Under the pieces are notes generated by a model. That model did no database searches and was not told the DNA's origin. It was given only the letters and a program-made list of their open reading frames with translations. The translations under genes and the position numbers were made by a program. DNA of 35,795 nt from Rubricoccaceae bacterium (GTDB lineage Bacteria; Bacteroidota; Rhodothermia; Rhodothermales; Rubricoccaceae): contig JAYWIE010000465.1 in the NCBI GenBank assembly GCA_043789155.1, positions 1 to 35,795 of the forward strand, written 5' to 3'. This document shows, piece after piece, positions 3,784 through 35,795 of the stretch (position 1 is the stretch's first letter; every line of letters starts with the position of its first letter).

Positions 3784-4009
3784 CGGTGTTTCCTCGACGG
3801 TCGTCTGGTGGAGCGGCCCTGGTCTGCACCGGCCTCAGAGTACGCATCAGGGCCGGTTCGTGGCCCGGCTCGCCGGTGCGGCCGCCCGGATCCAGTCGAC
3901 GCGCGCGCCAATCGCGCAGCGCCCGGTTGCCGCAGTCTCCGCGCCCGTGCTACCATGGCCCGTTCCGCGGCACGCGCCGCTCCGCTGCAGAACCAGGCCC
4001 CACCGAACC

Positions 4010-12514: not shown

Positions 12515-12550
12515 GCCGACCCCTCGGCCCCGCATCTCTACGCTACCGCT

Positions 12551-19341: not shown

Positions 19342-20381
19342 CACGCTCTTCGCCCACCGCCCCCGTCCGCGTCGCCCGCGTCGGCCTCGTCGGCCTCGGC
19401 GGGCACGGCCGCACGATCCGCGACGCTACCGAGGCCGCCGCGAACCTGCACGTCGCCGCCGTCTACGACCCCGACGCCGGCGAGGCTCAGGCGGCGGCTG
19501 CGCAGTTCGGCTGCCCCGCCGCGGCGTCCTACGAGGCCCTGGTCGCGCGCGACGACCTCGACGCCGTCGTCCTCGTGACGCCGAACCACGTCCACCGCGC
19601 GCAGGCCGAGGCGGCGTTCGCGCGTGGGCTCCACGTGTTCGTCGAGAAGCCCATCGCCAACACCGTCGCCGACGGCGAGGCCATGATCCGCGCGGCCGAG
19701 GCTGCGGGGCGCGTCCTCGCGGTCGGGCACAACATGCGGTTCAGCCGCTCGGCGCGGCTGGCGCAGGCGACGCTCGCCGAGGGGCGTCTCGGCGACATCG
19801 TGACGGTCGAGATCCACTTCTCGGGCGATAACACGCGGCGCATGGCCAGCGAGGCGTGGCGGCTCCGGCCGGACCAGTGCCCGCTGCTGCCCGTGATGCA
19901 GCTCGGCATCCACGCGCTCGACCTCGTCCACTTCCTCATCGGCCCCATCGCCGACGTCTCGGCCCTGGCGCGCTCAGTGACGACGCAGCCGGGCGTCGTG
20001 GACAGCGTCGCGGCGTCGTTTCGGACGGCTGCCGGGCCGACCGGGACGATGGTGAGCAACTACTGCACGCGCGTCCACTTCGCGTACCGGATCTCCGGCA
20101 CTGAGGCGACGCTCCACTGCACGCCCCACACGGCCACGCTGCTGCCCGCCGACGGCGCGCCGGCCGAGGAGCACGACTTCGCGGCTGCGGGCCGCGAGAG
20201 CTACGACCGCCTCATGGCCGACTTCGGCGACGCCGTGCGCCTGGGCACGCCGCCCGCCTCCGACGGCTGGAGCGGGCTCCAGGCGCTGGCCGTCGTCGAG
20301 GCGATGTCGGAGAGCGCCGCGCGCGGCGCGTCCGTGTCCGTCTCCCGTTTCACCCACTCGGCCGAGGCTCATGTCGCATAA
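19338..20381 (+). CDS. Gfo/Idh/MocA family NAD(P)-dependent oxidoreductase
   Basis: Starts at ATG 19338, in an ATGA overlap with the upstream stop. Rossmann motif VGLVGLGGHG, VFVEKP motif, and GHNMRF. Confidence 0.85.
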   Translation: MTRSSPTAPVRVARVGLVGLGGHGRTIRDATEAAANLHVAAVYDPDAGEAQAAAAQFGCPAAASYEALVARDDLDAVVLVTPNHVHRAQAEAAFARGLHVFVEKPIANTVADGEAMIRAAEAAGRVLAVGHNMRFSRSARLAQATLAEGRLGDIVTVEIHFSGDNTRRMASEAWRLRPDQCPLLPVMQLGIHALDLVHFLIGPIADVSALARSVTTQPGVVDSVAASFRTAAGPTGTMVSNYCTRVHFAYRISGTEATLHCTPHTATLLPADGAPAEEHDFAAAGRESYDRLMADFGDAVRLGTPPASDGWSGLQALAVVEAMSESAARGASVSVSRFTHSAEAHVA

Positions 20382-22242
20382 ACCCTTTTTCGCCGCGTGC
20401 GCGCTGCTTCTGCTGGTGTCGCCGGCGGCCGGTCAGCCGGCGGCGGCCCAGACCGCGGGCCCGGTCCGGCGGACCGTCGGCGAGCTGGACCGCGCGTTCC
20501 AGGCCCGCCGCGACTCGGTCATCGACTTCTATGCGAACGCGGTCGAGCCCACGAACCTCTCGCGCGGCGGCTACTTCGAGGTGGCCGCCAGCCTCTACCG
20601 CCGCCGCAACCTCGACTGGAGCCTCGCCCGGCTGGACTCGCTGACGTCCGTGCCGCAGTCCGGCGACATGTTCTGGATGTACCCGTTCACGACGGCGATG
20701 TACGCCGGCCGCGACGTCATCCCGGCACCGATGCAGGCCCGCATGCGCGACCTCTGGCGGACGTACCACCCGTACCGCGGCGACACCGAGAACCACTGGG
20801 CGCTGTACTACTCCACGCTCTACCTCGCCGCGCAGATGTACCCGGGCGAGCCCGGCTCGGCGTGGTTCACGGGTAAGAGCTCGGCCGAGAATATGGCCGA
20901 GGCCGAGGAGTACCTCCGCTCGTGGATGGACCTCGCCACGACCGTCGGGCAGGGCGAGTACGACTCGCCGGGCTATGTCCGCGTCTACATCGCCCCGATG
21001 GCGCTGCTCTACGCCTATGCCGAGGACCCGGCGATGCAGCAGCGCGCCGGGATGATGCTGGAGTTCCTCCTCGCCGACCTCGAGGTGGAGAGCCTCAACG
21101 GCCTCTCCGGCGGTGCCCACAGCCGGACCTACGAGCGCGAGGCGATCCGCCCGTGGCAGGCCCCCGGCGCGCCCCGCCTGTCGTGGCTGCTCTTCGGCAA
21201 CACGCCCTTCGCCCCGATGGGCGAGTCGCTCGTGCTCGCCCTCAGCGGCTACGCGCCGAGCCCGATGCTCCACGCCATCGCGACGCGCCGCGACGCGCCG
21301 TACGTCCACCGGGAGCTCAAGCGGACCCGCCACCGCATCCGCTACAGCGACGCCATGAACGCGCCGGTCTACAAGTACACCCGGATGCGGCCCGAGTACG
21401 TCCTCGGGTCCACGCAGGGCGGCCTGCTCCAGCCGATCCAGCAGCAGACGTGGAGCCTCATCTGGAACGTGGACGACCCGCGCGAGGCGCGCAACACGAT
21501 GATGTCCATCCAGGCGTACTCGTCGCCGCACGAGCTCGGGATGTACTTCGCCGAGTTCCCCGAGTTCGTCACCGAGCTCGTGATCCGCTCGAAGGGCGAG
21601 TACGACTCGCCCGACAAGCTCACCGGCGGCTCACCTTTCGAGCAGGTCGTGCAGGACGAGGACGCCCTCGTCGCGCTCTACGACATCGCCCCGGGGACGC
21701 GCTTCCCGCACATAAACGCCTTCTTCTCAGCCGACCTCCAGGAGCTCACGCAGGACGCCTCGGGCTGGATCTTCGCCCGCGGCGGCGACGCGCTCATCGC
21801 GTACTACCCGCTCGCGCCCTACACCTTCGAGCCGCACCGCGACCTCTGGGACTCGACGCTCGTCCACCGCCGCCTCGTCAGCACGCAGCTGAAGAACGGG
21901 GCCGTCGTGCAGGTGGCCCCGGCCTCGCAGTTCGCCTCGATGGCCGCGTTCCAGGCCGCCGTCCGCGCCCTGCCGCTGGAGACCGCGACGTCGCCCGTGC
22001 CGACCGTTCGCTACACGTCGCTCAGCGGTGCGCGCATCGAGGCGGTCTACGGCCAGACGCCCCGCATCGACGGTGCCCCGGTGGACTACGCGGGCTGGCC
22101 GCTCTACGACGGACCGTTCATGACGTCTGCGCCGGGCAGCCGCATCCTCGACATGCACGACGGCCCGATGCACCGCCGCCTCGACTTCAACACGCTGGCG
22201 GTCACCGACTGGGCCGACTCCGCCAGCCCCGACGCGCCATGA
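20371..22242 (+). CDS. Conserved ~620-aa protein of unknown family, exported paralog of 1049..2857
   Basis: 623 aa with an N-terminal signal peptide (MSHKPFFAACALLLLVSPAAGQPAAAQ). It shares long blocks with 1049..2857 and overlaps the upstream gene by 11 nt. Confidence 0.8.
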   Translation: MSHKPFFAACALLLLVSPAAGQPAAAQTAGPVRRTVGELDRAFQARRDSVIDFYANAVEPTNLSRGGYFEVAASLYRRRNLDWSLARLDSLTSVPQSGDMFWMYPFTTAMYAGRDVIPAPMQARMRDLWRTYHPYRGDTENHWALYYSTLYLAAQMYPGEPGSAWFTGKSSAENMAEAEEYLRSWMDLATTVGQGEYDSPGYVRVYIAPMALLYAYAEDPAMQQRAGMMLEFLLADLEVESLNGLSGGAHSRTYEREAIRPWQAPGAPRLSWLLFGNTPFAPMGESLVLALSGYAPSPMLHAIATRRDAPYVHRELKRTRHRIRYSDAMNAPVYKYTRMRPEYVLGSTQGGLLQPIQQQTWSLIWNVDDPREARNTMMSIQAYSSPHELGMYFAEFPEFVTELVIRSKGEYDSPDKLTGGSPFEQVVQDEDALVALYDIAPGTRFPHINAFFSADLQELTQDASGWIFARGGDALIAYYPLAPYTFEPHRDLWDSTLVHRRLVSTQLKNGAVVQVAPASQFASMAAFQAAVRALPLETATSPVPTVRYTSLSGARIEAVYGQTPRIDGAPVDYAGWPLYDGPFMTSAPGSRILDMHDGPMHRRLDFNTLAVTDWADSASPDAP

Positions 22243-23267
22243 CCCGCCTCCTCGCACCCCTGCTCCTCGCGCTCTGCGGCGCGGCTCCCGTCCACGCACA
22301 GAGCAGCCCCCCGTCCACGCTCCACATCGGCGCGATGCAGTCGCGCGGGTACGTCGTCGGCGGGCGGATCCAGGCCGGCGGCCTCCAGCGCTTCTCCGGC
22401 GACTCGACGTGGACGCACCTCGGCTGGAACACGCCGCGCATCGTCGGCATCGCCGTCGACCCGGTGCGGCCGGACACGATGTATCTCGCCTCGGGCAACG
22501 GCGTCCTGCGGACCTACGACGCCGGCGCGTCGTGGCGCATCACGACGGACTGGCGCGTCACCGAGGTCCAGGACGTCGCCGTAGATCCGCACGACACGGC
22601 CCACGTCTACCTCGCCTCGGCCTACGGCGTCTGGCGCTCGGACGACCATGCCGACTCGTGGACCCAGGCCAACGTCGGCCTCCCGCCGCCGGGCAACACG
22701 TACACCGAGACGGTCGAGGTGGACCGGAGCCGCGCCGGGCGGATCATCGTCGGCACGCAGGACGGCCTCTACGTCTCGACGGACGGCGCGCGCTCGTGGC
22801 GGCGCACCGGCGGGGCCGGCCTCGAGATCCTCGACCTCAACCAGAGCGTCTCCGATCCAACCCGCTGGATCGCCGCCACCCAGGGCCACGGCATCCTGCG
22901 CTCGTCCGACGGCGGCGAGACGTGGCGTCCCGGCCCGCGAGACCTCGCGCAGAAGACGGTCCATGCCGTTGCCATCGACCCGCGCGACGCCACCCGCATG
23001 GTGGCCGTCGGCTGGGACACCGGCGTCCTGCTCACCGAGAACGGCGGGCGCTCGTGGCGCCGCCGGGGCGACCGCCTGCCGACTCAGCGGTTCTACGAGG
23101 CCATCTTCGACGCCAACATCCCCGGCCGCCTGTGGGTGGCCACGCTCGAGGAGGGCGTCTTCACCACCGACGACGCCGGCCGCACGTGGCAGCCGCACGG
23201 CTTCGGCGGGTCGATGGTCTTCGACATGTTTTTCGTCCCGCCCCACAGCTCCCGCTCGGCACACTGA
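22239..23267 (+). CDS. BNR/Asp-box repeat beta-propeller protein, exported paralog of 2854..3783
   Basis: Starts at ATG 22239, in an ATGA overlap. It has a signal peptide (MTRLLAPLLLALCGAAPVHAQ). Asp-box-like repeats: YDAGASW, SDDHADSW, STDGARSW, SSDGGETW, TENGGRSW and TDDAGRTW. Confidence 0.8.
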   Translation: MTRLLAPLLLALCGAAPVHAQSSPPSTLHIGAMQSRGYVVGGRIQAGGLQRFSGDSTWTHLGWNTPRIVGIAVDPVRPDTMYLASGNGVLRTYDAGASWRITTDWRVTEVQDVAVDPHDTAHVYLASAYGVWRSDDHADSWTQANVGLPPPGNTYTETVEVDRSRAGRIIVGTQDGLYVSTDGARSWRRTGGAGLEILDLNQSVSDPTRWIAATQGHGILRSSDGGETWRPGPRDLAQKTVHAVAIDPRDATRMVAVGWDTGVLLTENGGRSWRRRGDRLPTQRFYEAIFDANIPGRLWVATLEEGVFTTDDAGRTWQPHGFGGSMVFDMFFVPPHSSRSAH

Positions 23268-23300: not shown

Positions 23301-24095
23301 ATGGACACGCAGCTTTTCACGGGCCAGTACCCCGTCTCCGACGAGAACGTCGACTCCTACCGCGACAACGGCTACGTCCGCTTCGACGGCGTCCTCACGG
23401 CTGAGGAGGTCGAGGCCGTCCGCGAGGGCCTCGCGCGCGGCGCGGAGGCCCAGAAGGGCTTCTCTCGCGACCTCGCCGGCGGCGGCGACAAGATCGTCCA
23501 GATGGTCAACCTCTGGGAAATCGACGACGTCATGAAGGCGTACTCGACCAACCCGCGCCTCGCCGGCATGGCCCGCCGCCTGACCGGCAGCGACTCCGTC
23601 CGCCTCTTTCACGACCAGGCGCTCGTCAAGAAGCCCGGGCCGAGTGCGGCCTCGCCGTGGCACCAAGACCAGCCGTACTGGCCCTCGAAGGAGCCCGGCA
23701 TGCTCTCGTGCTGGATGGCCCTCGACGACGTCACCATCGACCGCGGGGCCATGCAGTTCGTGCCCGGCTCGCACGCGTGGGGCGAGTTCGAGCCCATCTC
23801 GTTCGCCGGCGACGGCCCCGAGCTGCGCTCGCTGATCTCGCCCGAGCAGGAGGCGCAGTGGACCGTCGACCCCATCGAGCTCAAGGCCGGCGACTGCACG
23901 TGGCACCACGGCCTGACCTTCCACTACACGCGGCCCAACACGACCGAGCACGTTCGCCGCGCGCTCGTCACCATCTACATCCCCGACGGCGTGACGTTCG
24001 CCGCCGACGACAAGATGGAGGGCCCGATGAGCGAGTCGATCACGAGCAGAAAGGGCGAGCCACTGCGCGGCACGCGCTTCCCCGAGCTCGCGTAA
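23301..24095 (+). CDS. Phytanoyl-CoA dioxygenase (PhyH) family Fe(II)/2-oxoglutarate dioxygenase
   Basis: 264 aa. N-terminus YRDNGYVRFDGVL, HxD iron motif in WHQDQPYWP, and a distal His in WHHGLTFHYTRPN. Confidence 0.75.
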   Translation: MDTQLFTGQYPVSDENVDSYRDNGYVRFDGVLTAEEVEAVREGLARGAEAQKGFSRDLAGGGDKIVQMVNLWEIDDVMKAYSTNPRLAGMARRLTGSDSVRLFHDQALVKKPGPSAASPWHQDQPYWPSKEPGMLSCWMALDDVTIDRGAMQFVPGSHAWGEFEPISFAGDGPELRSLISPEQEAQWTVDPIELKAGDCTWHHGLTFHYTRPNTTEHVRRALVTIYIPDGVTFAADDKMEGPMSESITSRKGEPLRGTRFPELA

Positions 24096-24195: not shown

Positions 24196-25569
24196 GTGAT
24201 CGACCTCACGACCCGCCTGACGCCCGCCGACCTGCTCCCGAAACTCGACCGCTTCTGGGAGTACTCCGGCCAGAAGATCGACGCCATCGAGGCGGCGTTC
24301 GACCCGGACCGCGGCGCGCCCGTGTTCACCGTCGAGGGGCGGTACACGACGCGCGGCTGGACCGAGTGGACGCAGGGCTTCCAGGTCGGGGCCGCCCTGC
24401 TCCAGTTCGACGCCACCGGCGACGAGCGCTTCCTCGCCCTCGGCCGCGAGCGAACGCTCGCGCGCATGGCCCCGCACGTGACGCACGCCGGCGTCCACGA
24501 CCACGGCTTCAACAACGTCAGCACGTACGGCGCGCTGTGGCGGCTGATGAACGAAGGCCGCATCCCCGAGGACGCCTGGGAGCGCGCCTTCTACGAGATG
24601 GCGCTCAAGGCCTCCGGCGCGACGCAGGCCGGGCGCTGGACGGACCTCGGCGGCGGCGCGGGCTACGTCTACTCGTTCAACGGGCCGCAGTCGCTCTTCT
24701 CGGACACCATCCGCTCGATGCGCGCGCTCGCGCTCGCGCACCGCCTCGGGCACACGCTCGGCGGCGAGAACGACGTCCACCACTCGCTGCTCGGCCGGCT
24801 CCTCGCCCACGCCCGCGCGACGGCGGCCTACAACGTCTACTACGGCGAGGGCCGCGACGGCTACGACCTCCGCGGGCGCGTCGTCCACGAGAGCATCTTC
24901 AACCTCAACGACGGCCACTACCGCTGCCCGAGCACGCAGCAGGGCTACTCGCCTTTCACGACGTGGACGCGCGGCCTCGCGTGGGTCCTGCTCGGCTTCG
25001 CCGAAGAGCTGGAGTTCCTCGCCACGTGCGCGGACGCCGAGCTCGACCCGTTCGGCGGGCGCGACGCCCTCGCCGCGATGCTGCTGCGGGTGGCGACCGC
25101 CACGGCCGACTTCTACATCGAGCAGACGCCGACGTGCGGCGTGCCGTACTGGGACACCGGCGCTCCCAGCCTCCACCTTCTCGGCGACTACCTCGACCGG
25201 CCGGCGGACCCGACCAACGACCACGAGCCCGTCGACAGCTCGGCGGCGGCCATCGTCGCGCAGGGCATGGTCCGCCTCGGGCACCTGCTCGGCGACGATG
25301 ACGGCGTGCGGTACACGCAGGCCGGCCTGCGCATCCTCGACACGCTGCTCGGCGAGCCGTACCTCAGCACGGACCCGCAGCACCAGGGCCTCATTCTGCA
25401 CTCGGTCTACCACTGGCCGAACCGCTGGGACCACGTCCCGGCCGGGCACCGCGTCGCTTGCGGCGAGGCGACGATGTGGGGCGACTACCACGCGCGCGAG
25501 GCCGCGCTCACCGTGCAGCGCATCGCCCGCGACGAACCCTACTACACGTTCTTCTCGCCCCGACCCTAG
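24196..25569 (+). CDS. GH88/GH105-like unsaturated uronyl hydrolase family protein; no signal peptide
   Basis: 457 aa with a GTG start. Motifs resemble unsaturated glucuronyl/rhamnogalacturonyl hydrolases: GWTEWTQGFQVGAALL, VHDHGFNN, YWDTGAP and DSSAAAIVAQGMVRL. Confidence 0.6.
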   Translation: MIDLTTRLTPADLLPKLDRFWEYSGQKIDAIEAAFDPDRGAPVFTVEGRYTTRGWTEWTQGFQVGAALLQFDATGDERFLALGRERTLARMAPHVTHAGVHDHGFNNVSTYGALWRLMNEGRIPEDAWERAFYEMALKASGATQAGRWTDLGGGAGYVYSFNGPQSLFSDTIRSMRALALAHRLGHTLGGENDVHHSLLGRLLAHARATAAYNVYYGEGRDGYDLRGRVVHESIFNLNDGHYRCPSTQQGYSPFTTWTRGLAWVLLGFAEELEFLATCADAELDPFGGRDALAAMLLRVATATADFYIEQTPTCGVPYWDTGAPSLHLLGDYLDRPADPTNDHEPVDSSAAAIVAQGMVRLGHLLGDDDGVRYTQAGLRILDTLLGEPYLSTDPQHQGLILHSVYHWPNRWDHVPAGHRVACGEATMWGDYHAREAALTVQRIARDEPYYTFFSPRP

Positions 25570-26464: not shown

Positions 26465-27661
26465 ATGGATTCCACCACTCCTCCTTCGCCGGCCGCCGGC
26501 GAGAAGACCGTCCACCGCGTCGGCATCGTCATGAACGGTGTGACGGGCCGCATGGGCACCAACCAGCACCTCCTCCGGTCCATCGTCGCCATCCGCGAGC
26601 AGGGCGGCGTCGCCCTGAGCGACACGGCGGCGATCATGCCGGAGCCCGTCCTCGTCGGCCGCAACGCCGTCAAGCTCGCCGAGCTCGCCGAGCGCGCCGG
26701 CGGCCTGCCGTGGACGACCGACGTCGAGGAGGCTCTCGCGGACCCGAACAACACGGTCTACTTCGACGCTCAGACGACCGACCGCCGCGTCGCCGGCGTC
26801 CGGCGGGCCATCGAGCTCGGCAAGCACGTCTACTGCGAGAAGCCGACGGCGCTCACGACCGAGGACGCGCTCGACCTGTACCGCCGCGCCGAGGCGGCCG
26901 GCGTCAAGCACGGCGTCGTGCAGGACAAGCTCTGGCTGCCGGGCATCCTCAAGCTCCAGGCGCTGAAGGACTCGGGCTTCTTCGGCGACGTCCTCTCGGT
27001 CCGCGGCGAGTTCGGCTACTGGGTCTTCGAGGGCGACACCGTCCCGGCGCAGCGGCCGTCGTGGAACTATCGCGCCGAGGACGGCGGCGGCATCATCCTG
27101 GACATGCTCTGCCACTGGCGCTACGTGCTCGACACCGTCTTCGCGCCCGTCAGATCCGTCTCGTGCCTCGGCGCGACGCACGTCCCGACGCGCTGGGACG
27201 AGAACGGGAAGCCCTACAACGTCACGGCAGATGACAGCGCCTACGCCACGTTCGAGCTCGAGGGCGGCATCGTGGCGCACTTCAACTCGTCGTGGACGGT
27301 CCGCGTACGCCGCGACGACCTGCTGACGATTCAGGTCGACGGCACGAAGGGCTCGGCCGTCGCCGGCTTGCGCGAGTGCTGGACGCAGCCCTACGGCAAC
27401 ACGCCGAAGCCGGTCTGGAACCCGGACGTCCCGCAGCCGATCGACTTCCAGAGCGGCTGGCTGAAGGTCCCCGACCAGCGCGCGTACGACAACGCCTTCA
27501 AGGTGCAGTGGGAGCTGTTCCTGCGCCACGTCGTCGTGGGCGAGCCGTTCCGGTTCGGCCTCCTCGAGGGTGCCAAGGGCGTCCAGCTCGCCGAGGTGGG
27601 CCTGAAGTCGTGGGCCGACCGCTGCTGGACCGACGTCCCGGCCCTCAACGCCGATGCCTGA
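26465..27661 (+). CDS. Gfo/Idh/MocA family oxidoreductase (long ~400-aa subtype)
   Basis: 398 aa. Motifs: VGIVMNGVTGRMG and VYCEKP. It starts 4 nt after the TIM-barrel gene. Confidence 0.85.
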   Translation: MDSTTPPSPAAGEKTVHRVGIVMNGVTGRMGTNQHLLRSIVAIREQGGVALSDTAAIMPEPVLVGRNAVKLAELAERAGGLPWTTDVEEALADPNNTVYFDAQTTDRRVAGVRRAIELGKHVYCEKPTALTTEDALDLYRRAEAAGVKHGVVQDKLWLPGILKLQALKDSGFFGDVLSVRGEFGYWVFEGDTVPAQRPSWNYRAEDGGGIILDMLCHWRYVLDTVFAPVRSVSCLGATHVPTRWDENGKPYNVTADDSAYATFELEGGIVAHFNSSWTVRVRRDDLLTIQVDGTKGSAVAGLRECWTQPYGNTPKPVWNPDVPQPIDFQSGWLKVPDQRAYDNAFKVQWELFLRHVVVGEPFRFGLLEGAKGVQLAEVGLKSWADRCWTDVPALNADA

Positions 27662-28439
27662 GACTACCCCCTTGCGCGTTGCGCTCGTCACCGGCGGCGC
27701 GAGCGGCATCGGCCTCGGCATCTCGGACGCGCTCGCGCGCGAGGGCTTCGCCCTCGCCGTCTGCGGCCGCCGCCCCGAAGCAGACCTGGCCGCCGCCCTC
27801 GACGCACTCCGCGCCCACGGCACCGACGTCCTCTACGTCCCGGCCGACGTCGCCCGTCAGGCCGACCGCGAGCGCGCCCTCGCGGACGTCCGCGCCCACT
27901 TCGGGCGCCTCGACGTGCTCGTCAACAACGCGGGCGTCGGGCCGACGCAGCGCCTCGACCTGCTCGAGGCGACCGAGGAGAGCTTCGACCGCGTGCTCGG
28001 CATTAACCTCAAAGGGCCCTACTTCCTCACCCAGGCCGCAGCGCGCTGGATGGTCGGGCAGGCCGGGGCCGACGCAGCCTTCCGGGCCGCGATCATCAAC
28101 GTCGGCTCGATCTCGGCGACGATGGTGTCCGTCAACCGCGGCGAGTACTGCATCTCGAAGGCCGGGGTGGCGATGGCGACGCAGCTCTGGGCCGCGCGCC
28201 TCGGCGAGGTCGGCATCCCCGTCTACGAGGTGCGCCCCGGCATCGTCCACAGCGACATGACGGCCGGCGTGCGGCAGAAGTACGACGCGCTCCTCGAGGC
28301 GGGCCTCTTCGTGCAGCCGCGCTGGGGCGAGCCCGAAGACGTCGGCAGGGCCGTGGCGATGCTCGCCCGCGGCGACCTCGCCTACTCGACCGGCCAGGTC
28401 GTGATGGTCGACGGCGGCGTCTCGATGAGCCGGCTCTGA
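27654..28439 (+). CDS. Short-chain dehydrogenase/reductase (SDR) family oxidoreductase
   Basis: 261 aa. Motifs: TGGASGIG, NNAG and the catalytic YCISK. It overlaps the upstream gene by 8 nt. Confidence 0.9.
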   Translation: MPETTPLRVALVTGGASGIGLGISDALAREGFALAVCGRRPEADLAAALDALRAHGTDVLYVPADVARQADRERALADVRAHFGRLDVLVNNAGVGPTQRLDLLEATEESFDRVLGINLKGPYFLTQAAARWMVGQAGADAAFRAAIINVGSISATMVSVNRGEYCISKAGVAMATQLWAARLGEVGIPVYEVRPGIVHSDMTAGVRQKYDALLEAGLFVQPRWGEPEDVGRAVAMLARGDLAYSTGQVVMVDGGVSMSRL

Positions 28440-28557
28440 GGGTTGAGAGGTTACAAGGGTGAGGGGGAAGGCTGCTCCGTGGGGGCGTTGGCCACTCAAC
28501 CGCTGCCCTGCTCAACACTCGGCCTTCTCAATTCCCCACTTCCCACCCTCTCAACCC
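28440..28557 (+). repeat. Imperfect long inverted repeat spanning an intercistronic gap (G-rich 5' arm, C-rich 3' arm)
   Basis: GGGTTGAGAGG (28440..28450) is the exact complement of CCTCTCAACCC (28547..28557). An inner pair is GAAGGC (28467..28472) with GCCTTC (28522..28527). CTCAA(C/T) recurs four times in the 3' half. Confidence 0.6.
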
Positions 28558-28563
28558 GATCCA

Positions 28564-29325
28564 ATGCCTTCCACCGAAACACTCACCCCCGACCAGGTCG
28601 CGCAGTACCAGCGCGACGGGTTCCTCATCGTCCCGGACCTGCTGACGGCCTCGGAGGCGGAAGCGTTCGTGGACCACGCCGACGCGACCGACGCCTCCGG
28701 GTGGCGCGAGAGCCTCCGGCACCACACCGCCGACGCGTCGTGGAACGCCGTGGCGACGACGGACCGCGTCGTGTCCATCATCAAGCAGCTGTTCGAGTCC
28801 GCCGAGACGCCGAACATCGTCCAGACGATGTACATGGTCCGCCCGCCGGCGGGCGACGCGGTCGTCGGCGGCAAGGGCATCGCGCTGCACCAGGACCAGC
28901 ACTACCTCCCGACCGACCCGGCGGAGATGATCGCGTGCTGGATCGCGATGGAGGACACGGACCCCGGCAACGGCGGCCTGTGCGTCGTCCCCGGGAGCCA
29001 CACCGCAGGGCTGCTCCAGACCCACAGGAACGCCGACGACGAGGAGCACGACTCGTGGGAGACGGACCACCTCATGCGCGACCGCGACGGCCGCGAGTGG
29101 ACGCAGAGCTTCTACTCGTTCGACATCGAGGGCCTCGACGAGAGCACCATCACCTGCCTGACGATCCCGCGGGGCGCCGGCGTCTTCTTCGACAGCCACA
29201 CCATCCACGGCTCCTACGGCAACCGCTCGAAGGACCGCATCCGCCGGGCCTTCGCGACCCACTACGTCCCGCCGCACGCATGGGTCGCCCGTGCCGACGT
29301 GCAGGACGTCGTGCCCGCCGCATGA
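28564..29325 (+). CDS. Phytanoyl-CoA dioxygenase (PhyH) family Fe(II)/2-oxoglutarate dioxygenase
   Basis: Track ORF 28459..29325, with the start moved to ATG 28564 (MPSTETLTPDQVAQYQRDGFLIVPDLL). HxD motif in LHQDQHYLP and a distal His in HTIHGSYGNRS. Confidence 0.75.
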   Translation: MPSTETLTPDQVAQYQRDGFLIVPDLLTASEAEAFVDHADATDASGWRESLRHHTADASWNAVATTDRVVSIIKQLFESAETPNIVQTMYMVRPPAGDAVVGGKGIALHQDQHYLPTDPAEMIACWIAMEDTDPGNGGLCVVPGSHTAGLLQTHRNADDEEHDSWETDHLMRDRDGREWTQSFYSFDIEGLDESTITCLTIPRGAGVFFDSHTIHGSYGNRSKDRIRRAFATHYVPPHAWVARADVQDVVPAA

Positions 29326-29329
29326 GACG

Positions 29330-30370
29330 ATGACCCTCACCGAAGACGCCCCATTCGAGGTCCTCCGCGCGACGTGGCAGCCCGTCGGCCTCTCGCGGGC
29401 GCTCGCCGCCGGCGAGACGCTGGCGTACACGCTGCTCGGCGTCGAGCTCGTCGTGGCGCGCTTCGACGACGGTCTGCTCGCGACCGCCGACGCGTGCCCG
29501 CACAAGGGCATGCGCCTGAGCTGCGCGGGCGTGGCGAATGGCCGGCTGACATGCGCCTACCACGGCTGGCAGTTCGACCGGTCGGGCCGGTGCGTCGGCG
29601 TGCCGTCTCTGCTGGACCCGCCGCAGCGGCTGCTCGACCATGCCGCGCTCACGCCGTTCGCCGTCCAGGAGCGCTACGGCATGATCTGGGTGCGCCTCGA
29701 CGCCGACGAGGCGGCACCGCTGCCCGGCCTCCCTGAGTTCGACGGGGCGGACGGCTGGGACGTGCTCGTCGCCGAGCCGATGGCGTTCGCGTGCGGCTTC
29801 CGGCGCGAGATCGAGAACTTCCTCGACATGACGCACTTCGCCTTCGCCCACGGCACGACGCTCGGCGCCGCGGCCGACGCCGTGATGCCGCCGATGGAGA
29901 CCGCACGCCTACCCGACGGTTTCGAGATGCGCGCGCCGTTCCCGGCTCTCGCGGTGCCCGGCATCACGCCAGGCAAGCTCCAGAGCGCGCACCAGCGCCA
30001 CCAGCGCGGACACCTGCCCAACGTCACCACCGTCCGCCAGACGTTCGGCGACGGCGACGAGCGCCTGGTCCTCCACGTCCCGAGCCCCAACACGCGGGAG
30101 AGCTGCACCGTCTTCTGGGCCGTCGCCCAGCCGGCCGGCTTCGACGGCCCGGCGCTCGCCGACCAGGTCGCCTTCTCGACGTCCGTCCTCGAGGAGGACC
30201 GCTTCATGTGCGAGCGGCAGGTCCCCCGCGAGGTGCCCATCGACCCGGCGCGCGGCGGCTGGGGCGTGCTCGTCTCGCCCGGCGACACCCTGGCCACCCT
30301 GTTCCAGAAGCAGTTCCGCGCCTTCCTGACTGCCCGCCTCGAGGCGCGGAAAGAAGGGCCAGGGGCATGA
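29330..30370 (+). CDS. Rieske [2Fe-2S] non-heme iron oxygenase, alpha-subunit/VanA-like
   Basis: Starts at ATG 29330 (MTLTEDAPF). Rieske motif CPHKG-x16-CAYHGW. Mononuclear iron motif in NFLDMTHFAFAHG (D-x2-H-x4-H). Confidence 0.85.
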   Translation: MTLTEDAPFEVLRATWQPVGLSRALAAGETLAYTLLGVELVVARFDDGLLATADACPHKGMRLSCAGVANGRLTCAYHGWQFDRSGRCVGVPSLLDPPQRLLDHAALTPFAVQERYGMIWVRLDADEAAPLPGLPEFDGADGWDVLVAEPMAFACGFRREIENFLDMTHFAFAHGTTLGAAADAVMPPMETARLPDGFEMRAPFPALAVPGITPGKLQSAHQRHQRGHLPNVTTVRQTFGDGDERLVLHVPSPNTRESCTVFWAVAQPAGFDGPALADQVAFSTSVLEEDRFMCERQVPREVPIDPARGGWGVLVSPGDTLATLFQKQFRAFLTARLEARKEGPGA

Positions 30371-30452
30371 GGCACCCGGTATGAGGCAACGGGCATGAGT
30401 GGAAGCCCCCATGCCCCGTTCCTTCACGATTCCACATCCAACCCTCTCCGAC

Positions 30453-31556
30453 ATGTCCTCCCGCCTTCCGCCGTCGCTCGCCGACGGGCCGTCCATCCTC
30501 ACCACCACCGTCGGCTCGTACTCGCCCATCGACTGGCTCGCGGCGCTGCCGAGCGAGCAGGCCGTCATCGACGCGACGGCCGTCGTCGTCGGTACGCAGC
30601 GGCGCGCGGGCATCGACCTGCCGACGGACGGCGAGCTGTACCGCTTCGACCCGAACCACCCCGACACGAACGGGATGATCGAGTACTTCATCTCGCGCAT
30701 CGGCGGCGTCGAGACGGCCGTCGGCATCTCGGACGGCCGGGCCTTCCGCGAAAAGCAGGAGATGAGCTTCCGCCGCAAGCCGGCGGGCGTCGTCGTGGAG
30801 GCCCTCTCGGAGGGCAGCCTCGACCTCTACGAGGCGTGCGCGCGCTCCGGCGCCGTCGCCGGCGGGCCGTTCAAGTTCACGCTCACGAGCCCGTTCATGC
30901 TCGCGCGGACGCTGCTGGACCGCCACTACACCGATTTCGAGGCGCTCACGCTCGCCATCGCCGACGTCCTCGCGGCGCAGGTGGAGGCGCTGCCGTGCGC
31001 CGTCGTGCAGGTGGACGAGGCCAACGTGCCGGGCGCGCCCGAGCACGCGCCCCTCGCAGCCGAGGCCATCAACCGCATCCTGGACAAGGTCCAGGCCGAG
31101 CGGGCCGTCCACTTCTGCTTCGGCAACTACGGCGGCCAGACCATCCAGGGCGGCTCGTGGCGCGTGCTGACGGACTTCCTGAACGCGCTCCACACGGACC
31201 ACCTCGTCCTCGAACTCGCCCACCGCCCGGACGACGACCTCTTCGCGCTCCGCGACGTCGACGACCGGATCGCGCTCGGCCTCGGCGTGGTCGACATCAA
31301 GGTCAACCACGTCGAGACGCCGGACGAGGTCGCGGGGCGCATCGAGCGGGCCGTCGAGGTGCTCGGCGAGGGCCGCGTGCGGTGGGTCCACCCGGACTGT
31401 GGCTTCTGGATGCTCAAGCGCTCCGTCGCCGACCGGAAGATGGAGGCGCTCGTCGCCGGCCGCGACCTGTTCCTCGGGCGCGCCGCGGCCGACTGGCCCG
31501 CGACGTCCGGCGCGGACGAGGCGGCCCCCGTCGGGACATCTGGCGAGGACTACTGA
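30453..31556 (+). CDS. Cobalamin-independent methionine synthase (MetE C-terminal/UROD-fold) like Zn-dependent protein
   Basis: Track ORF 30399..31556. Possible starts are GTG 30399, ATG 30411 and ATG 30453; I chose 30453 (MSSRLPP). Motifs: TTTVGSYSP.DWL, DGELYR, HFCFGNYGG (H-x-C) and VHPDCGFWMLKR. These match the MetE-type zinc/thiol-alkylation site layout. Confidence 0.7.
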   Translation: MSSRLPPSLADGPSILTTTVGSYSPIDWLAALPSEQAVIDATAVVVGTQRRAGIDLPTDGELYRFDPNHPDTNGMIEYFISRIGGVETAVGISDGRAFREKQEMSFRRKPAGVVVEALSEGSLDLYEACARSGAVAGGPFKFTLTSPFMLARTLLDRHYTDFEALTLAIADVLAAQVEALPCAVVQVDEANVPGAPEHAPLAAEAINRILDKVQAERAVHFCFGNYGGQTIQGGSWRVLTDFLNALHTDHLVLELAHRPDDDLFALRDVDDRIALGLGVVDIKVNHVETPDEVAGRIERAVEVLGEGRVRWVHPDCGFWMLKRSVADRKMEALVAGRDLFLGRAAADWPATSGADEAAPVGTSGEDY

Positions 31557-33997
31557 GCGCGTACAGGCGTGGGGGAGCGTGTTTCTGACGCGTCCCTCAC
31601 GCCATACCGCTCCAGCGCCACGGCGAGGATGCCGAACTGGTCCGTGAGCAGGCCCTCGTATCCGCACGGGCGGCCGTCCCAGTAGCGCCAGTCGAGGCCG
31701 CTGCCGGAGCCGCCGAAGACGGCGGCGTCGGCCAGACCGTCGCAGAGGCGCGCGAGCAGCAGGTCCGCCTCGCGCGTCATCCCGACGCGGTAGAGCGCGC
31801 CGACGAAGTGGCGGGCCTGCGAGTGCGTGCGGCCGCCGTTCTGGTAGAAGCCGAGCGGGTAGCCCTGCATGACGTCCGCAAGGTCCTCGTCGGCGACCGA
31901 CCGCAGGTTGCCGGGGAGGCCGAGGTACGCATCCGGCATCCGGACGCGCAGCGCCTCGGCCCAGAGGCGCTCGATGACGTCGCGGGCGAAGACGTCGTCC
32001 AGCAGGCCGGCCGTAACGGCGGCACCGTTGGGCGCGAGGAAGGCGTAGTCGTGGAGGCGGCCGTCGGCGCAGCGCCAGCCGGCGAGCCAGCCCGTCTCCT
32101 CGTTGTAGAACGCCGGCACGTAGGCGGTGCGCAGCGCCTCGGCCCATGCGTCGAGGCCGGCCGCGAGACCGCCGCCGCCGAGGCCGGGCAGGACGGCCGC
32201 GAGGCGCGTCAGGGCGGGGTAGAGGACCGCGTTCGAGAAGGCGTCCTTCCAGCCGTACGAGACGACGTCGAACCAGTTGGTGCTCCACTGGCCCGAGCCG
32301 CTCGTGCCGGTCCGGTAGGCGCTCTCGACGAGGCCGTCGCCGTCGAGGTCGCGGGCGCGCATGGCGTCGAGCTGGTGCCGGATGGCACCCCGGCGGGCGT
32401 CGAGCCACTCGGCCGTGCCGGCCGCCTCGAGGAACTCGGCGAGGCCGAGCAGGCAGGCCGCGCCCGTCATGAGGTACTCGTCCTCGGCGTCGTGGACGGT
32501 GCCGTCTTGGAGCAGCGGGCCGCTGGTGTAGCCCGGCGCGCCGTCGAGCCAGCGCTCGAGCGAGTCGCGGAGCAGGTCAAGGGCGTCGAGGTGGGGCAGC
32601 ACGCGGCCGATGAGGCGCGTCGTGGCCGCCCAGGCGTCCATGCAGATCGGGCAGTGGATCGAGACGCCGTTGTTGCTCAGCGTCGCCGTGTCGGCGCGGT
32701 ACGTGAGCGCCGTGAGCGTGCACGCCTCGACGGCCCGGACGACTTCGGGCGGCGTCTCGGCGGCGAGCGGCACGGCCGGATGCCCGACGCGGAGCTCGAT
32801 GCGCGCCTCGTAGCGGCCCGCCGGCAGCAGGACGTCGCCGCCGGGCTGCGGCTCCTCGCCGAGCGTGAGCTCGAGCGACGTCATCGCGCGCGGCCGGTTG
32901 GCGTCCGAGCGGACCCGCACCGCGTCCGTGTTGGCCTCGACGTACAGGCTCCCGAAGCCCGGCGCGTGGAGCCACACCGGCAGCACGAGCGTCCCCGTCT
33001 CGCCCGTCCGCTCGGTCGCGCCGACGACGTGGCACGGCGTGACGACGCTGTGGAGCGCGATCGTCCAGAGGCTCGACCGCCACGCGCGGATCGTCCGCTC
33101 GACGGTGCGGACGGCCCGCAGCACGAGGCGGTCCGGCAGGATCTCCCACGCGAGGCTCAGGTGCTGGCCCGAGTCGCCGAGCGTGAGGTCGTAGCTCAGC
33201 CGGTTGCCCTGGACGCGCGACGTGCCGCGGGCGCGGTTCCGCAGCGCCGTCATCACGACGGGCGCCCCGCCGACGGGCGCGAGCTGCGGCCCCTGGTAGA
33301 ACAGGCCCGGCCCGTGGCGCAGCAGGTTGCCCGCCGTGTCGCCGCCGCCGCGCGCGTCGAGCGCGAGGTGCGAGAAGCCGGCCCGGTTGAGGCAGAAGCC
33401 GACCTCGAGGTGCTGCGACCGGTAGCGGACCTCGCCGTGCGTGTGCTCGGCGGTGAGGCCGCGCGGGAGGCCCGAGAGCGACACCTCGGTGACGTCGAGG
33501 AGCGACTCCTGCCGGGCGCGGATCGTCCCGAGCGGCTCGCCTTCGAGCACGAGCGCGCCCATCGCCAGATTCCACGACGGCCACCAGCCGTCGATGCCGC
33601 AGCGGCGGACCTCGATCCGCAGCGTGCTCGCCTCGGTCCCGCCGAGGTCGATCCACGCCGTCTCGTCCGGCCGCTCGAGGTCCCGCAGGTCGTGCTCGAC
33701 GCGCCACTCGGCACCGTCCCACACGAGCACGCGCAGCGCCGTCACCCAGTCGAGGTCGACCGTGCTGCCGCACTTGTGGTAGCCGGGCGCGCACTGCAGC
33801 CCGAGGCGCGTGAGGCGCGCGGGCGCATGGAACTGGACCGTCCGGGCGTGGATGATGCGGTGCGCCGGCGCGCCGTCCTCGCCGTCCAGCGGGACGGTCC
33901 AGACCGCGCGGCAGCCGGCGAGCAATTCCTGCCCCGCCGTGTCGCCCATCGGGGGCTGCAGGTCACGCAGGGTGAGCAGGTTCCGGTCGGCGCTCAT
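31550..33997 (-). CDS. 815-aa cytoplasmic protein with C-terminal six-hairpin glycosidase-like region; uncharacterised family
   Basis: Clean ORF with an ATG start at 33997 and no signal peptide. The C-terminal half has alpha/alpha-barrel-like motifs (DEYLMTGAACLLGLAEF, DGDGLVESAY, FYQNGGRTHSQARHFVGALYRVG, YEGLLTDQFGILAVALE). The N-terminal ~170 aa look like a beta-sandwich. Confidence 0.6.
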   Translation of the reverse strand: MSADRNLLTLRDLQPPMGDTAGQELLAGCRAVWTVPLDGEDGAPAHRIIHARTVQFHAPARLTRLGLQCAPGYHKCGSTVDLDWVTALRVLVWDGAEWRVEHDLRDLERPDETAWIDLGGTEASTLRIEVRRCGIDGWWPSWNLAMGALVLEGEPLGTIRARQESLLDVTEVSLSGLPRGLTAEHTHGEVRYRSQHLEVGFCLNRAGFSHLALDARGGGDTAGNLLRHGPGLFYQGPQLAPVGGAPVVMTALRNRARGTSRVQGNRLSYDLTLGDSGQHLSLAWEILPDRLVLRAVRTVERTIRAWRSSLWTIALHSVVTPCHVVGATERTGETGTLVLPVWLHAPGFGSLYVEANTDAVRVRSDANRPRAMTSLELTLGEEPQPGGDVLLPAGRYEARIELRVGHPAVPLAAETPPEVVRAVEACTLTALTYRADTATLSNNGVSIHCPICMDAWAATTRLIGRVLPHLDALDLLRDSLERWLDGAPGYTSGPLLQDGTVHDAEDEYLMTGAACLLGLAEFLEAAGTAEWLDARRGAIRHQLDAMRARDLDGDGLVESAYRTGTSGSGQWSTNWFDVVSYGWKDAFSNAVLYPALTRLAAVLPGLGGGGLAAGLDAWAEALRTAYVPAFYNEETGWLAGWRCADGRLHDYAFLAPNGAAVTAGLLDDVFARDVIERLWAEALRVRMPDAYLGLPGNLRSVADEDLADVMQGYPLGFYQNGGRTHSQARHFVGALYRVGMTREADLLLARLCDGLADAAVFGGSGSGLDWRYWDGRPCGYEGLLTDQFGILAVALERYGVRDASETRSPTPVRAQ

Positions 33998-34145: not shown

Positions 34146-35795
34146 CTAGCGCCGCCCGTGCTCGGCGTCGAGGCGGGCACCGCGCGAGCCGGGGGCGTGC
34201 TGCGGGCCCGTCAGCGGGCGGTCCGGGCTGGCGTAGCGCGTCGGGAGCAGGCTCGGCTGGTTGGCGACCATCGTCAGGAAGACGTCCAGCGGGACGATCT
34301 CGACGTCCGGCCCGACCTGGTCGATGATGGCCTTGACCTGCGCGATCGTGCTCCACTGGCGGATGTGGAGCAGCAGGAAGGCGGGCCGCGCGGCGTTCAT
34401 CCGGACCAGCTCCTGGAGGTCCGCGACGGCCTCGGCCTGCGGGCGCGTCTCGCTGAGGTAGTAGTCGTACGACATCGTGGGGACGCCGTCGCGGACGTCG
34501 AACGTGCCGGCGGCACCGTAGCCGTTGACGAAGCCGAGCGCGTCTGGGTAGGCGGCATAGACGTCGTCCATCACCTCGCGCGTGATGTCGAGGTTGCCCA
34601 TCGTGCGCGTGCCCTCGGAGTAGTCCATCAGGCCGTAGACGCGGATGTCGAGCGTATCGGCGAGGGCGCGCGCCTCGGCGAGCAGGCGCGGCCGGTCGGC
34701 GGCGGGGATCGGCTTGGGGTACATGTAACCCGGCCCCGAGGGTGCCGCGGTGAAGTAGTCGTTCGGCGTGGCCTGCTCGTAGTGGTACTGCATGACGGCC
34801 GGACTCATCCAGGTCCAGTTCATCGTCACCTCCCAGGCGTACGGGATGGTGCCGCGGCCGGGCTTCAGCCACGCGCCGATGCCGATGGCGTCGGTCTGGA
34901 CGGCGGCGACGTAGACCCGGGGCCCGGGGACGATGACCTGGCCGGGCTGCACGCTGTGCTGGTTGCGGTAGCGGAAGCCGGGCGTGACGGGGATCTGGGT
35001 GTTGAAGCTCGTGTTGGGCAGCGTGTTGAGGCCCTCCATGCGGAGCGCGTGCTGCGAGACGAGCGTCGTCATCTGGCCCTCGGTGTCCTTGGCGTACGAG
35101 TGCCAGCCGAGGACGACGCCGCGGTCCGACATCGTGGCGAGGAGCGAGTCGGCGAGCGCGTACTCGGCGGCGTCGGTCGGGTCGGCCGAGAGGTCGGTGA
35201 AGAAGGCCCGCTGGTAGATGCCGTAGTCGGCCACGCCGGGCTCCATCGACGCGCCCGCGACGCCGCCCATCCAGACGATGAAGTCGTGCGAGACGCGGTC
35301 GCGGTAGCGCGCCCACGCGTCGCGGTAGATCTGGACGTCGGTCATGCCGCGGTAGCGGCCGCGGAGGTCGTCCACCATGCGCAGGCCATGGGCCTCGGCG
35401 AGCGGGATCAGCGCCTCGTTGACGACGATGGCCTGCTCCAGCCCGGCGACGGTGAAGGCGACCGTGAGCGAGGTCCGCACGTCGGCGTCCCACACGACGT
35501 AGCCCCGCGCTGTGCCGGCGAAGCGGTCGAGCGCGGCCTCGGGCGTCTCGATCTCGTCGAACGTGATGTGGTGGCGCGTGCCGTAGTAGTCGTGGATCGC
35601 CTCGGTGAACGAGAACACCCAGTCGGGCTGGTAGACGAAGTACAGGTTGGGCGCCTCGCGGTTGGCGACGCCCTGGAGGCTGATCAGCATCGCGTTGACG
35701 GGCAACTGGCCGTCGAGGCGCCAGTCGCCCTGGAGGTGCATCGAGGCGGCGGTGCGCGCCGGCGCCTCGCCCGTCTGCGCCCGCGGTGCCGCCGA
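34146..35795 (-). CDS. GxGYxYP family putative glycoside hydrolase; the 5' end is probably outside the window
   Basis: Track ORF 34146..35741. The frame stays open for 18 more codons to the window edge (..AQTGEAPARTAAS-MHLQG). It contains the family-defining motif in APSGPGYMYPKP. Confidence 0.7.
   Translation of the reverse strand, partial: SAAPRAQTGEAPARTAASMHLQGDWRLDGQLPVNAMLISLQGVANREAPNLYFVYQPDWVFSFTEAIHDYYGTRHHITFDEIETPEAALDRFAGTARGYVVWDADVRTSLTVAFTVAGLEQAIVVNEALIPLAEAHGLRMVDDLRGRYRGMTDVQIYRDAWARYRDRVSHDFIVWMGGVAGASMEPGVADYGIYQRAFFTDLSADPTDAAEYALADSLLATMSDRGVVLGWHSYAKDTEGQMTTLVSQHALRMEGLNTLPNTSFNTQIPVTPGFRYRNQHSVQPGQVIVPGPRVYVAAVQTDAIGIGAWLKPGRGTIPYAWEVTMNWTWMSPAVMQYHYEQATPNDYFTAAPSGPGYMYPKPIPAADRPRLLAEARALADTLDIRVYGLMDYSEGTRTMGNLDITREVMDDVYAAYPDALGFVNGYGAAGTFDVRDGVPTMSYDYYLSETRPQAEAVADLQELVRMNAARPAFLLLHIRQWSTIAQVKAIIDQVGPDVEIVPLDVFLTMVANQPSLLPTRYASPDRPLTGPQHAPGSRGARLDAEHGRR

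Follow-up and report, generated by a model that had tools for sequence, protein, structure and literature searches.

A conserved Rieske oxygenase/MetE-like gene pair closes a Rubricoccaceae polysaccharide locus and may remove methyl groups from sugar-derived intermediates

Methyl ethers and esters block sugar catabolism, and the sole oxidative sugar demethylase that has been described, to our knowledge, is the P450 system of porphyran loci. There, a cytochrome P450, a ferredoxin and a ferredoxin reductase together demethylate 6-O-methyl-D-galactose (PMC6292453, PMC10033563). Here we analyse a block of three genes at positions 28,564 to 31,556 of a 35,795-nucleotide stretch of DNA from a Rubricoccaceae bacterium (GenBank assembly GCA_043789155.1, contig JAYWIE010000465.1, positions 1 to 35,795; hereafter the window), which encode a PhyH-family dioxygenase, a Rieske non-heme iron oxygenase and a MetE-like zinc protein. 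An earlier reading of the letters, which we call the original prediction, had proposed that this block removes or transfers methyl groups, or other small decorations, from an imported glycan.

The block would work like the porphyran system in that an oxygenase encoded in a polysaccharide locus would remove a methyl ether as formaldehyde. The two differ in that the porphyran enzyme belongs to the P450 family and comes with its redox partners and with alcohol dehydrogenases, whereas here the oxygenase is a Rieske protein, no redox partner is encoded in the locus, and the accompanying enzyme instead resembles a thiol methyltransferase. NdmA/NdmB, VanA, DdmC, SxtT and KshA share with the window's Rieske protein the Rieske and VanA_C domains, a length of about 350 aa, the lack of a beta subunit and the same Fe-S and iron motifs; the match to enzymes of the Ndm/VanA type nevertheless amounts to only 63-115 bits, NCBIfam equivalog thresholds are missed widely, no NdmD/VanB-type reductase is encoded near the protein's relatives (80 loci), and its neighbours are carbohydrate enzymes rather than genes of aromatic or purine pathways. 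The third protein has its closest described counterparts in the core methionine synthases MesA-D and the catalytic half of split MetE (Price et al. 2021, PMC7857596), with which it shares a single Meth_synt_2 barrel of ~340-380 aa carrying zinc and Ser/Glu/Asp sites, and in the case of MesD also an occurrence in aerobes, beside a putative redox partner. It differs from them in being distant from MesD, in its catabolic gene context and in having no MesX, corrinoid or Meth_synt_1 partner nearby. A comparable two-step logic, in which a zinc/homocysteine methyl acceptor would be combined with an oxidative demethylase, is offered by BHMT and two-stage betaine demethylation; BHMT, however, has a different fold family (PF02574), the window's Rieske protein is not orthologous to GbcA, Stc2 or CntA, and no betaine transporter or downstream genes were seen. 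The block belongs to neither the porphyran P450 system nor two-stage betaine demethylation, and by sequence comparison its proteins pass superfamily-level tests but fail every ortholog-level test.

Genes were called by third-position GC, and the calls were then confirmed by Pfam and NCBIfam. The window has a G+C content of ~70%; the third-position GC of the three block genes lies at 0.91-0.96, and Pfam agrees that they are three real genes on the + strand. The features of the block, together with a further PhyH gene found upstream in the window, are as follows.

23301..24095, + strand: first PhyH dioxygenase of the window (PhyH-1; Pfam), 71-83% identity in syntenic blocks
28440..28563, + strand: 124-nt gap, the largest in the co-directional run (gap table)
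28564..29325, + strand: PhyH-family Fe(II)/2-oxoglutarate dioxygenase (PhyH-2), 253 aa, ATG at 28564; PF05721, E 6.6e-29
29330..30370, + strand: Rieske non-heme iron oxygenase of the alpha-only VanA/NdmA type, 346 aa; PF00355, E 3e-19, and VanA_C PF19112, E 2.5e-15
30411..31556, + strand: core MetE-like zinc protein, 381 aa, alternative GTG start at 30399; PF01717 (Meth_synt_2), E 2e-17

We find that the conserved unit is the two-gene Rieske/MetE-like pair and not the trio. Orthologs of the Rieske protein (56-87% identity) occur in Rhodothermales, Bacteroidota, Verrucomicrobiota, Planctomycetota, Acidobacteriota and Lentisphaeria, and the closest homologs of the Rieske protein, the MetE-like protein and the 815-aa protein encoded convergently behind them come from Rubrivirga, Rubricoccaceae, Rhodocaloribacter and other Rhodothermales metagenome-assembled genomes (MAGs), which points to an uncultured Rhodothermales-like bacterium as the source. 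To map synteny, we placed the window's proteins on 80 species-representative loci with a Rieske ortholog, 72 of which carry at least 1.2 kb of DNA downstream of that gene and were used to count adjacency. In 47 of the 72, the next gene after the Rieske gene is a MetE-like gene of the same strand (median gap 99 nt). These 47 loci span Rhodothermales, Bacteroidota and many Verrucomicrobiota, and include many Opitutaceae, Terrimicrobiaceae and Chthoniobacterales in which the rest of the block is missing; that the two genes stay adjacent in three phyla, among different neighbours, speaks for a functional link. A longer block of ~18.5-34 kb is found in the same order in Rubrivirga, Rhodocaloribacter litoris, several Rhodothermales MAGs and one Bacteroidetes MAG: TIM barrel, GFO/IDH/MocA oxidoreductase (GFO), 623-aa protein, BNR propeller, PhyH-1, 457-aa protein, TIM barrel, GFO, short-chain dehydrogenase/reductase (SDR), optionally PhyH-2, Rieske, MetE-like and the convergent 815-aa protein. 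A divergent AraC regulator with a cupin sensor domain precedes the pair in 33 loci, mostly of Verrucomicrobiota. Where the Rieske ortholog has no MetE-like neighbour, it adjoins ThuA, LacI regulators, aldo-keto reductases and GFO oxidoreductases, a setting that argues against an aromatic substrate.

PhyH-2 has the motif H109-Q-D111 and covers PF05721 over its full length (1-213 of 213), with the distal iron-binding His, read by eye, in an 'SHTIHG' segment; it reaches no NCBIfam equivalog threshold and is 22% identical to PhyH-1. Among the 80 Rieske loci, PhyH-2 adjoins the Rieske gene only in L001-3, L009, L011, L013 and L079, and it is absent from Rubrivirga, Rhodocaloribacter, L012 and all of the Verrucomicrobiota loci. 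It is PhyH-1, and not PhyH-2, that is the PhyH conserved in the longer block, with PhyH-2 an optional accessory. A fixed trio of PhyH, Rieske and MetE-like genes, missing its first member from most loci with the pair, was rejected. The expectation that the trio would be syntenic in other genomes thus holds for the Rieske/MetE-like pair and fails for PhyH-2, and the two members of the pair are themselves unequal. When we scanned metagenomes for the MetE-like ortholog, at least 600 stretches matched, and 58 listed loci with at least 1.3 kb upstream were used; among these matches listed, a Rieske gene stands beside the MetE-like ortholog in one of the 58. The MetE-like gene is far the commoner of the two, and it is the Rieske gene that usually travels with a MetE-like gene, not the reverse.

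The neighbours of MetE-like genes that stand without a Rieske gene were also recorded. Among the metagenome matches listed, a PL22-like/PD40 propeller lies downstream of the MetE-like gene in 12 loci, an enolase-superfamily-like protein is a neighbour in 12 and an AraC regulator in 8, and an SSF solute transporter stands directly upstream in 7. In other loci, from cultured organisms and MAGs, the MetE-like gene comes after a GFO gene and the gene of a 1028-aa BNR protein, or stands last in a GH116-like/GH13/GH39 operon. The gene looks more like a member of several small catabolic modules than like a housekeeping methionine synthase, an identity that these neighbours (transporters, PL22-like and enolase-like proteins, AraC regulators) weaken for the stand-alone genes. 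As a separate observation, stand-alone MetE-like orthologs at 62-78% identity (metagenome loci L093-L172) sit in modules composed of AraC, enolase-like protein, SSF transporter, MetE-like protein and PL22-like/PD40 propeller.

The Rieske protein carries its [2Fe-2S] ligands in C56-P-H58...C75-A-Y-H78 and its mononuclear iron motif in D166-x2-H169-x4-H174, with D290 as the carboxylate, and none of these eight residues (C56, H58, C75, H78, D166, H169, H174, D290) varies in 41 homologs. The PF19112 match reaches 57.6 bits, the cutoff being 23.5. Its placement among VanA, DdmC, Stc2, BmoA, CntA and PaO was judged from PDB and NCBIfam score rankings, which serve here as a proxy for a tree. The best PDB matches are NdmB (115 bits) and NdmA (110 bits), followed by SxtDIOX/SxtT, phthalate 4,5-dioxygenase and DdmC (63 bits), with KshA and CntA (37 bits) scoring much lower; in NCBIfam, SdmA is best at 70 bits against a cutoff of 600, and GbcA reaches 19 bits against 670. 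By these comparisons the protein represents an uncharacterised subfamily of the alpha-only VanA/Ndm class and is an ortholog of no known demethylase. The demethylase kinship that had been proposed for it is borne out at the level of nearest solved relatives, and so is its lack of orthology to curated aromatic or quaternary-amine demethylases, the scores being far below ortholog level. Arg, Lys, Gln, His, Glu and Asp make up most of the invariant residues in its C-terminal domain, as would suit a polar substrate.

No Fer2, FNR-type or flavin-reductase Pfam domain occurs among the 26 genes of the window, and a regular-expression search for plant-type 2Fe-2S and FNR motifs was negative, both across the window and across the conserved open reading frames of the 80 related loci. 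The original prediction was right that the window encodes no ferredoxin or reductase for the Rieske enzyme; the missing reductase is, however, no peculiarity of this locus, since its absence is family-wide. Two side observations concern the genes found near Rieske orthologs. In four Opitutaceae loci (L033, L042, L057, L087) a URO-D family protein, a member of MetE's structural clan (PF01208, E 2e-39), lies just upstream of the Rieske gene and, judged by eye, seems to be without MtaA-type H-x-C zinc ligands. In L068, L081, L082 and L084 (Opitutaceae), and in L004, the Rieske gene is accompanied by DUF455, a further PhyH subfamily, AraC and two unknown proteins of ~800 aa. The surroundings of the Rieske gene suggest a wider co-occurring set of oxygenases and glycosidase-like proteins, and the 815-aa protein itself adjoins the Rieske/MetE-like pair in L066, L068, L081, L082 and L084 (Opitutaceae).

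The MetE-like protein is a single domain, without the folate-binding N-terminal domain. It has the motifs H234-F-C236, E268 and P-D-C330, as well as G-S36-Y, D-G-E75 and Q-V-D202-E. H234, C236, E268 and C330 align with the zinc ligands of Arabidopsis thaliana MetE and of MesD (PDB 3RPD). In Escherichia coli MetE, homocysteine is bound by Ser433, Glu484 and Asp599 (PMC7857596). S36 (in GSY) and D202 (in QVDE) align directly with the homocysteine-binding Ser and Asp, and E75 (in DGE) was assigned as the Glu by its motif, an insertion offsetting the HMMER alignment at that point. All seven residues (H234, C236, E268, C330, S36, E75, D202) are invariant in 25 homologs, so that the zinc site named beforehand is present and the homocysteine site is kept with it. 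With 75-94% identity among its best 120 matches, the protein exceeds the Rieske protein in conservation. Among solved structures, MesD 3RPD comes closest to it (E 5e-12, over the C-terminal half). In NCBIfam none of its ten matches reaches its cutoff, and no curated methionine-synthase threshold is passed, the best match being PRK04326 with 143 bits where 406 are required. No MesX/DUF1852 protein, corrinoid protein or split Meth_synt_1 was found in the window or in the related loci examined. The simplest reading of these residues is that of a putative zinc-dependent homocysteine S-alkyltransferase.

Within the window, the three genes, intact and with all of their named motifs, are confirmed by third-position GC, Pfam and the motif check, and they stand, as had been proposed, at the end of a predicted operon: a co-directional run from ~13.7 kb to 31.6 kb stops with the MetE-like gene, whose stop is overlapped by 7 nt by a convergent gene (31550-33997). 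From 17.6 kb on, gaps in this run are no longer than 42 nt save for two, one of 100 nt before the GH88-like gene and one of 124 nt between the SDR and PhyH-2 genes; PhyH-2 and Rieske are then separated by 4 nt, and Rieske and MetE-like by 40 nt. The 124-nt gap is a possible site for an internal promoter. No promoter-like site turned up in a sigma-70 scan, whose model leaves out promoters of the Bacteroidota type, and the terminator-like sites of the same scan, which is ill suited to this phylum, were about as frequent as expected by chance. Searched against Rfam, the window and five related loci yielded one tRNA only and no S-adenosylmethionine (SAM) or B12 riboswitch, and a biosynthetic methionine synthase therefore has no support from riboswitches. 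None of the PhyH-2, Rieske and MetE-like proteins has a signal peptide, so that they would act in the cytoplasm on imported material. A biofilm metagenome DNA run contains 0.97 of the window's sampled words, and the sole RNA run contains 7%.

Building on the observed genes, motifs, adjacency and carbohydrate context, we infer a substrate, a direction of methyl flow and a division of labour. We tentatively favour the reading, to which we give somewhat less than an even chance, that the pair (with PhyH-2 here) frees a sugar-derived intermediate in the cytoplasm of small alkyl groups, methyl being the likeliest. The block would be a cytoplasmic tailoring module ending an acidic-polysaccharide utilisation locus, with a core of two genes and PhyH as an optional third oxygenase. 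The Rieske monooxygenase, fed with electrons by a reductase encoded elsewhere, would hydroxylate a small alkyl group, methyl or another, that decorates a polar substrate of sugar origin, and the group would leave as formaldehyde or another aldehyde; hydroxylation with release as an aldehyde is the standard chemistry of this protein's nearest relatives. The MetE-like enzyme would bind homocysteine on its zinc site and accept a methyl (one-carbon, C1) unit from the same substrate family, for example an activated ester or onium methyl group, to give methionine, or else it would process the C1 unit.

Several points weigh against this proposal. In most Verrucomicrobiota the pair is found with the AraC regulator only, outside any glycan locus; the MetE-like gene seldom has a Rieske neighbour in the metagenome loci described above, and in Cerasicoccus and in L090 it occurs without one, among housekeeping genes. 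The window encodes neither a reductase nor a formaldehyde-handling gene near the block. VanA-type Rieske enzymes also hydroxylate without demethylating, as SxtT and KshA do, and a simple methyl ether is a poor donor to a zinc-thiolate. What support there is for methyl groups in particular comes entirely from family resemblance. The idea that methyl groups are removed from the imported glycan thus keeps its glycan context, its demethylase kin and its zinc and homocysteine sites, but with the pair so often outside glycan loci the link to a glycan is plausible and not required.

The genes' occurrence outside glycan loci brings in an alternative that is unlikely but carries real weight, namely that the pair forms an independent catabolic module whose substrate is a small methylated solute, for example a quaternary amine such as a betaine, a sulfonium compound such as dimethylsulfoniopropionate (DMSP) or an N-methylated heterocycle, and that this module was accreted to the glycan operon in Rhodothermales. 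The MetE-like protein would then move the first, activated methyl group to homocysteine, as BHMT does, and the Rieske protein would oxidatively remove the remaining ones, as do GbcA, Stc2 and NdmA. Such a module would account for the minimal Verrucomicrobiota unit of AraC, Rieske and MetE-like genes with unrelated flanks, for N-demethylases as the nearest solved relatives of the Rieske protein, for the SSF solute transporters and enolase-superfamily proteins adjoining stand-alone MetE-like genes and for the 124-nt gap that parts the block from the upstream genes, and it would supply the activated methyl donor that a zinc-thiolate needs by established BHMT/MetE chemistry. It fits poorly, however, with a pair that is tightly co-directional with sugar genes in at least seven Rhodothermales/Bacteroidota genomes and whose recurrent partners are carbohydrate enzymes ((alpha/alpha)6 protein, PL22-like propeller, ThuA, GFO, LacI); moreover, the GbcA score is negligible (19 bits against 670), that of CntA is weak (37 bits), and neither a BCCT or betaine ATP-binding cassette (ABC) transporter nor downstream sarcosine/dimethylglycine genes were seen. 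It is also conceivable, though rather improbable, that the MetE-like protein is no methyltransferase and that its zinc serves as a Lewis acid in the isomerisation, hydration or decarboxylation of a keto-deoxy sugar acid which lyases or dehydratases have produced, with the Rieske protein hydroxylating that acid. PL22-like and enolase-like proteins, producers of such intermediates, do repeatedly accompany stand-alone MetE-like genes; in some Opitutaceae the URO-D protein, by eye without the H-x-C zinc ligands, replaces or accompanies the MetE-like protein beside the Rieske gene, and a cupin replaces the second TIM barrel in a Bacteroidetes MAG. Speaking for an alkyltransferase instead, the His/Cys/Glu/Cys zinc site is the thiol-alkylation signature of MetE, MesD and their kin, none of the three residues that bind homocysteine varies among the homologs, and we know of no precedent for sugar isomerisation in the MetE fold.

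We consider it very unlikely that the pair is anabolic, a MesD/MesX-like, oxygen-dependent methionine synthase without folate or B12 for which the Rieske protein generates the methyl donor. The regulation looks catabolic (AraC with a cupin sensor domain, or operons headed by IclR), no SAM or B12 riboswitch or DUF1852 protein was seen in the loci covered above, and the MetE-like gene is mostly found without a Rieske gene, within modules of transporters and carbohydrate enzymes; these observations have to be set against MesD as the best solved relative (3RPD, E 5e-12), the lack of a folate domain in a family that occurs in aerobes and the very high conservation of the MetE-like protein (75-94% identity among the best 120 matches). 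MesD needs a partner protein and oxygen (PMC7857596), which likewise counts for an anabolic role. Finally, the adjacency could be meaningless, the common MetE-like gene having served as a landing site and unrelated genes having been inherited side by side, but this is extremely improbable given that the adjacency is kept in three phyla and several orders, with different flanks and short same-strand gaps.

The literature searched contains no description of a Rieske/MetE-like pairing, nor of Rieske enzymes or 'methionine synthase II' in glycan loci, and within that literature the chemistry is, as the original prediction had it, undescribed for glycan loci with these families. If the demethylation proposal is true, there would be a second way of demethylating sugars, in which a Rieske route is joined to a zinc enzyme that binds homocysteine, and this way would occur widely among Verrucomicrobiota, Rhodothermota and Bacteroidota of soils, fresh water and the sea. 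A role might then also be assigned to the highly conserved and very abundant 'methionine synthase II family' protein that annotation pipelines at present call a methionine synthase. A bolder version, which we regard as distinctly improbable, is that the pair is a new oxygen-linked C1-salvage system in which the MetE-like protein represents a fifth family of homocysteine methyltransferases that depend on neither folate nor B12, the methyl group coming from a carbohydrate methyl ether or ester, or from the product of the Rieske enzyme; methyl decorations of glycans would then pass directly into methionine instead of being lost as methanol or formaldehyde.

The carbohydrate setting of the block is given by the other genes of the window, listed here in their order along it.

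1049-2761, - strand: second lyase-fold paralog, 54% identical to the protein of 20371-22242
2854-3783, - strand: BNR propeller of the second lyase-fold paralog
5881-6702, + strand: IclR-family regulator at the head of the + strand run (Pfam, NCBIfam)
6830-9826, + strand: TonB-dependent receptor with CarboxypepD_reg and Plug domains (Pfam, NCBIfam)
18502-19341, + strand: xylose-isomerase-like TIM barrel (Pfam)
19341-20381, + strand: GFO/IDH/MocA oxidoreductase (Pfam)
20371..22242, + strand: 623-aa protein with a predicted polysaccharide-lyase fold and no Pfam family (AlphaFold2 (AF2) model with a predicted local distance difference test score (pLDDT) of 92.5; Foldseek)
22251..23267, + strand: BNR/Sortilin-type beta-propeller, partner of the 623-aa protein (Pfam; fusions)
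24196..25569, + strand: 457-aa distant GH88-like protein of the unsaturated glucuronyl hydrolase type (PDB 1vd5/2ahf, E 1.6e-10; no Pfam match)
25612-26460, + strand: second TIM barrel (Pfam, NCBIfam)
26465-27661, + strand: second GFO/IDH/MocA oxidoreductase (Pfam, NCBIfam)
27654-28439, + strand: SDR, passing the generic PRK12745 model
31550..33997, - strand: 815-aa protein with predicted beta-sandwich and (alpha/alpha)6 domains, glycosidase/phosphorylase-like (AF2 pLDDT 90.3; Foldseek)
34146..35741, - strand: GxGYxYP putative glycoside hydrolase with four GxGYxYP Pfam domains

The lyase-fold proteins, the GH88-like protein, the (alpha/alpha)6 protein, the TonB receptor, the ABC permeases, the GxGYxYP protein and the two TIM-barrel/GFO pairs together support the premise of a glycan locus and point to the degradation of an acidic, uronate-containing polysaccharide. 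The placement of the block in a glycan locus accordingly holds here, through its carbohydrate-enzyme neighbours, TonB receptor and ABC importer. The locus also offers two carbohydrate-enzyme leads, a candidate polysaccharide-lyase family and an uncharacterised (alpha/alpha)6 glycosidase-like family; by sequence, neither the 623-aa nor the 815-aa protein matched anything in the PDB, be it as a single query or as a profile. The top 21 Foldseek matches of the 623-aa model are all polysaccharide lyases (PL33, PL8, PL17, PL12 and glycosaminoglycan lyases; E 1e-7 to 3e-5) of the toroid-plus-sandwich type. The lyase-fold protein is fused to a BNR propeller in three proteins of other organisms (P0362, P0363, P0389), and its family has about 1,200 cluster representatives at E <= 0.001; judged from the model, it and its paralog are candidates for a new polysaccharide-lyase family. 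The 457-aa GH88-like protein is 72-82% conserved in the syntenic blocks. For the SDR, an identity as KduD was rejected at 125 bits against a cutoff of 338, the generic PRK12745 model being passed instead. The Foldseek matches of the 815-aa model are GH15-like dextran dextrinase, GH94, GH116, GH63 and GH78.

Downstream of the TonB receptor (9869-13561 region, + strand), an 881-aa protein shows no SusD domain and a weak C-terminal match to CHU_C (type IX secretion). The gene after it is weakly PorV-like, and no SusD-like gene was recognised in this region (9869-13561, + strand). Between two ABC permease genes, the segment 15357-18487 (+ strand) encodes a class-V pyridoxal-phosphate enzyme (SufS/PvdN-like) with a twin-arginine-like N-terminus; the window contains no ABC ATPase gene, and its sole recognisable solute-binding protein lies 10 kb upstream (3860-5353). 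In the Bacteroidetes MAG (L001, 1-1350), the first TIM barrel and its GFO/IDH/MocA oxidoreductase, separate genes at 18502-20381 of the window, form a single fusion protein of 606 aa, and a small cupin stands in place of the window's second TIM barrel. The 815-aa protein, which has no Pfam family and is called 'hypothetical' in nearly all sources, is kept in Rhodothermota, KSB1, Ignavibacteria, Bacteroidota and Verrucomicrobiota.

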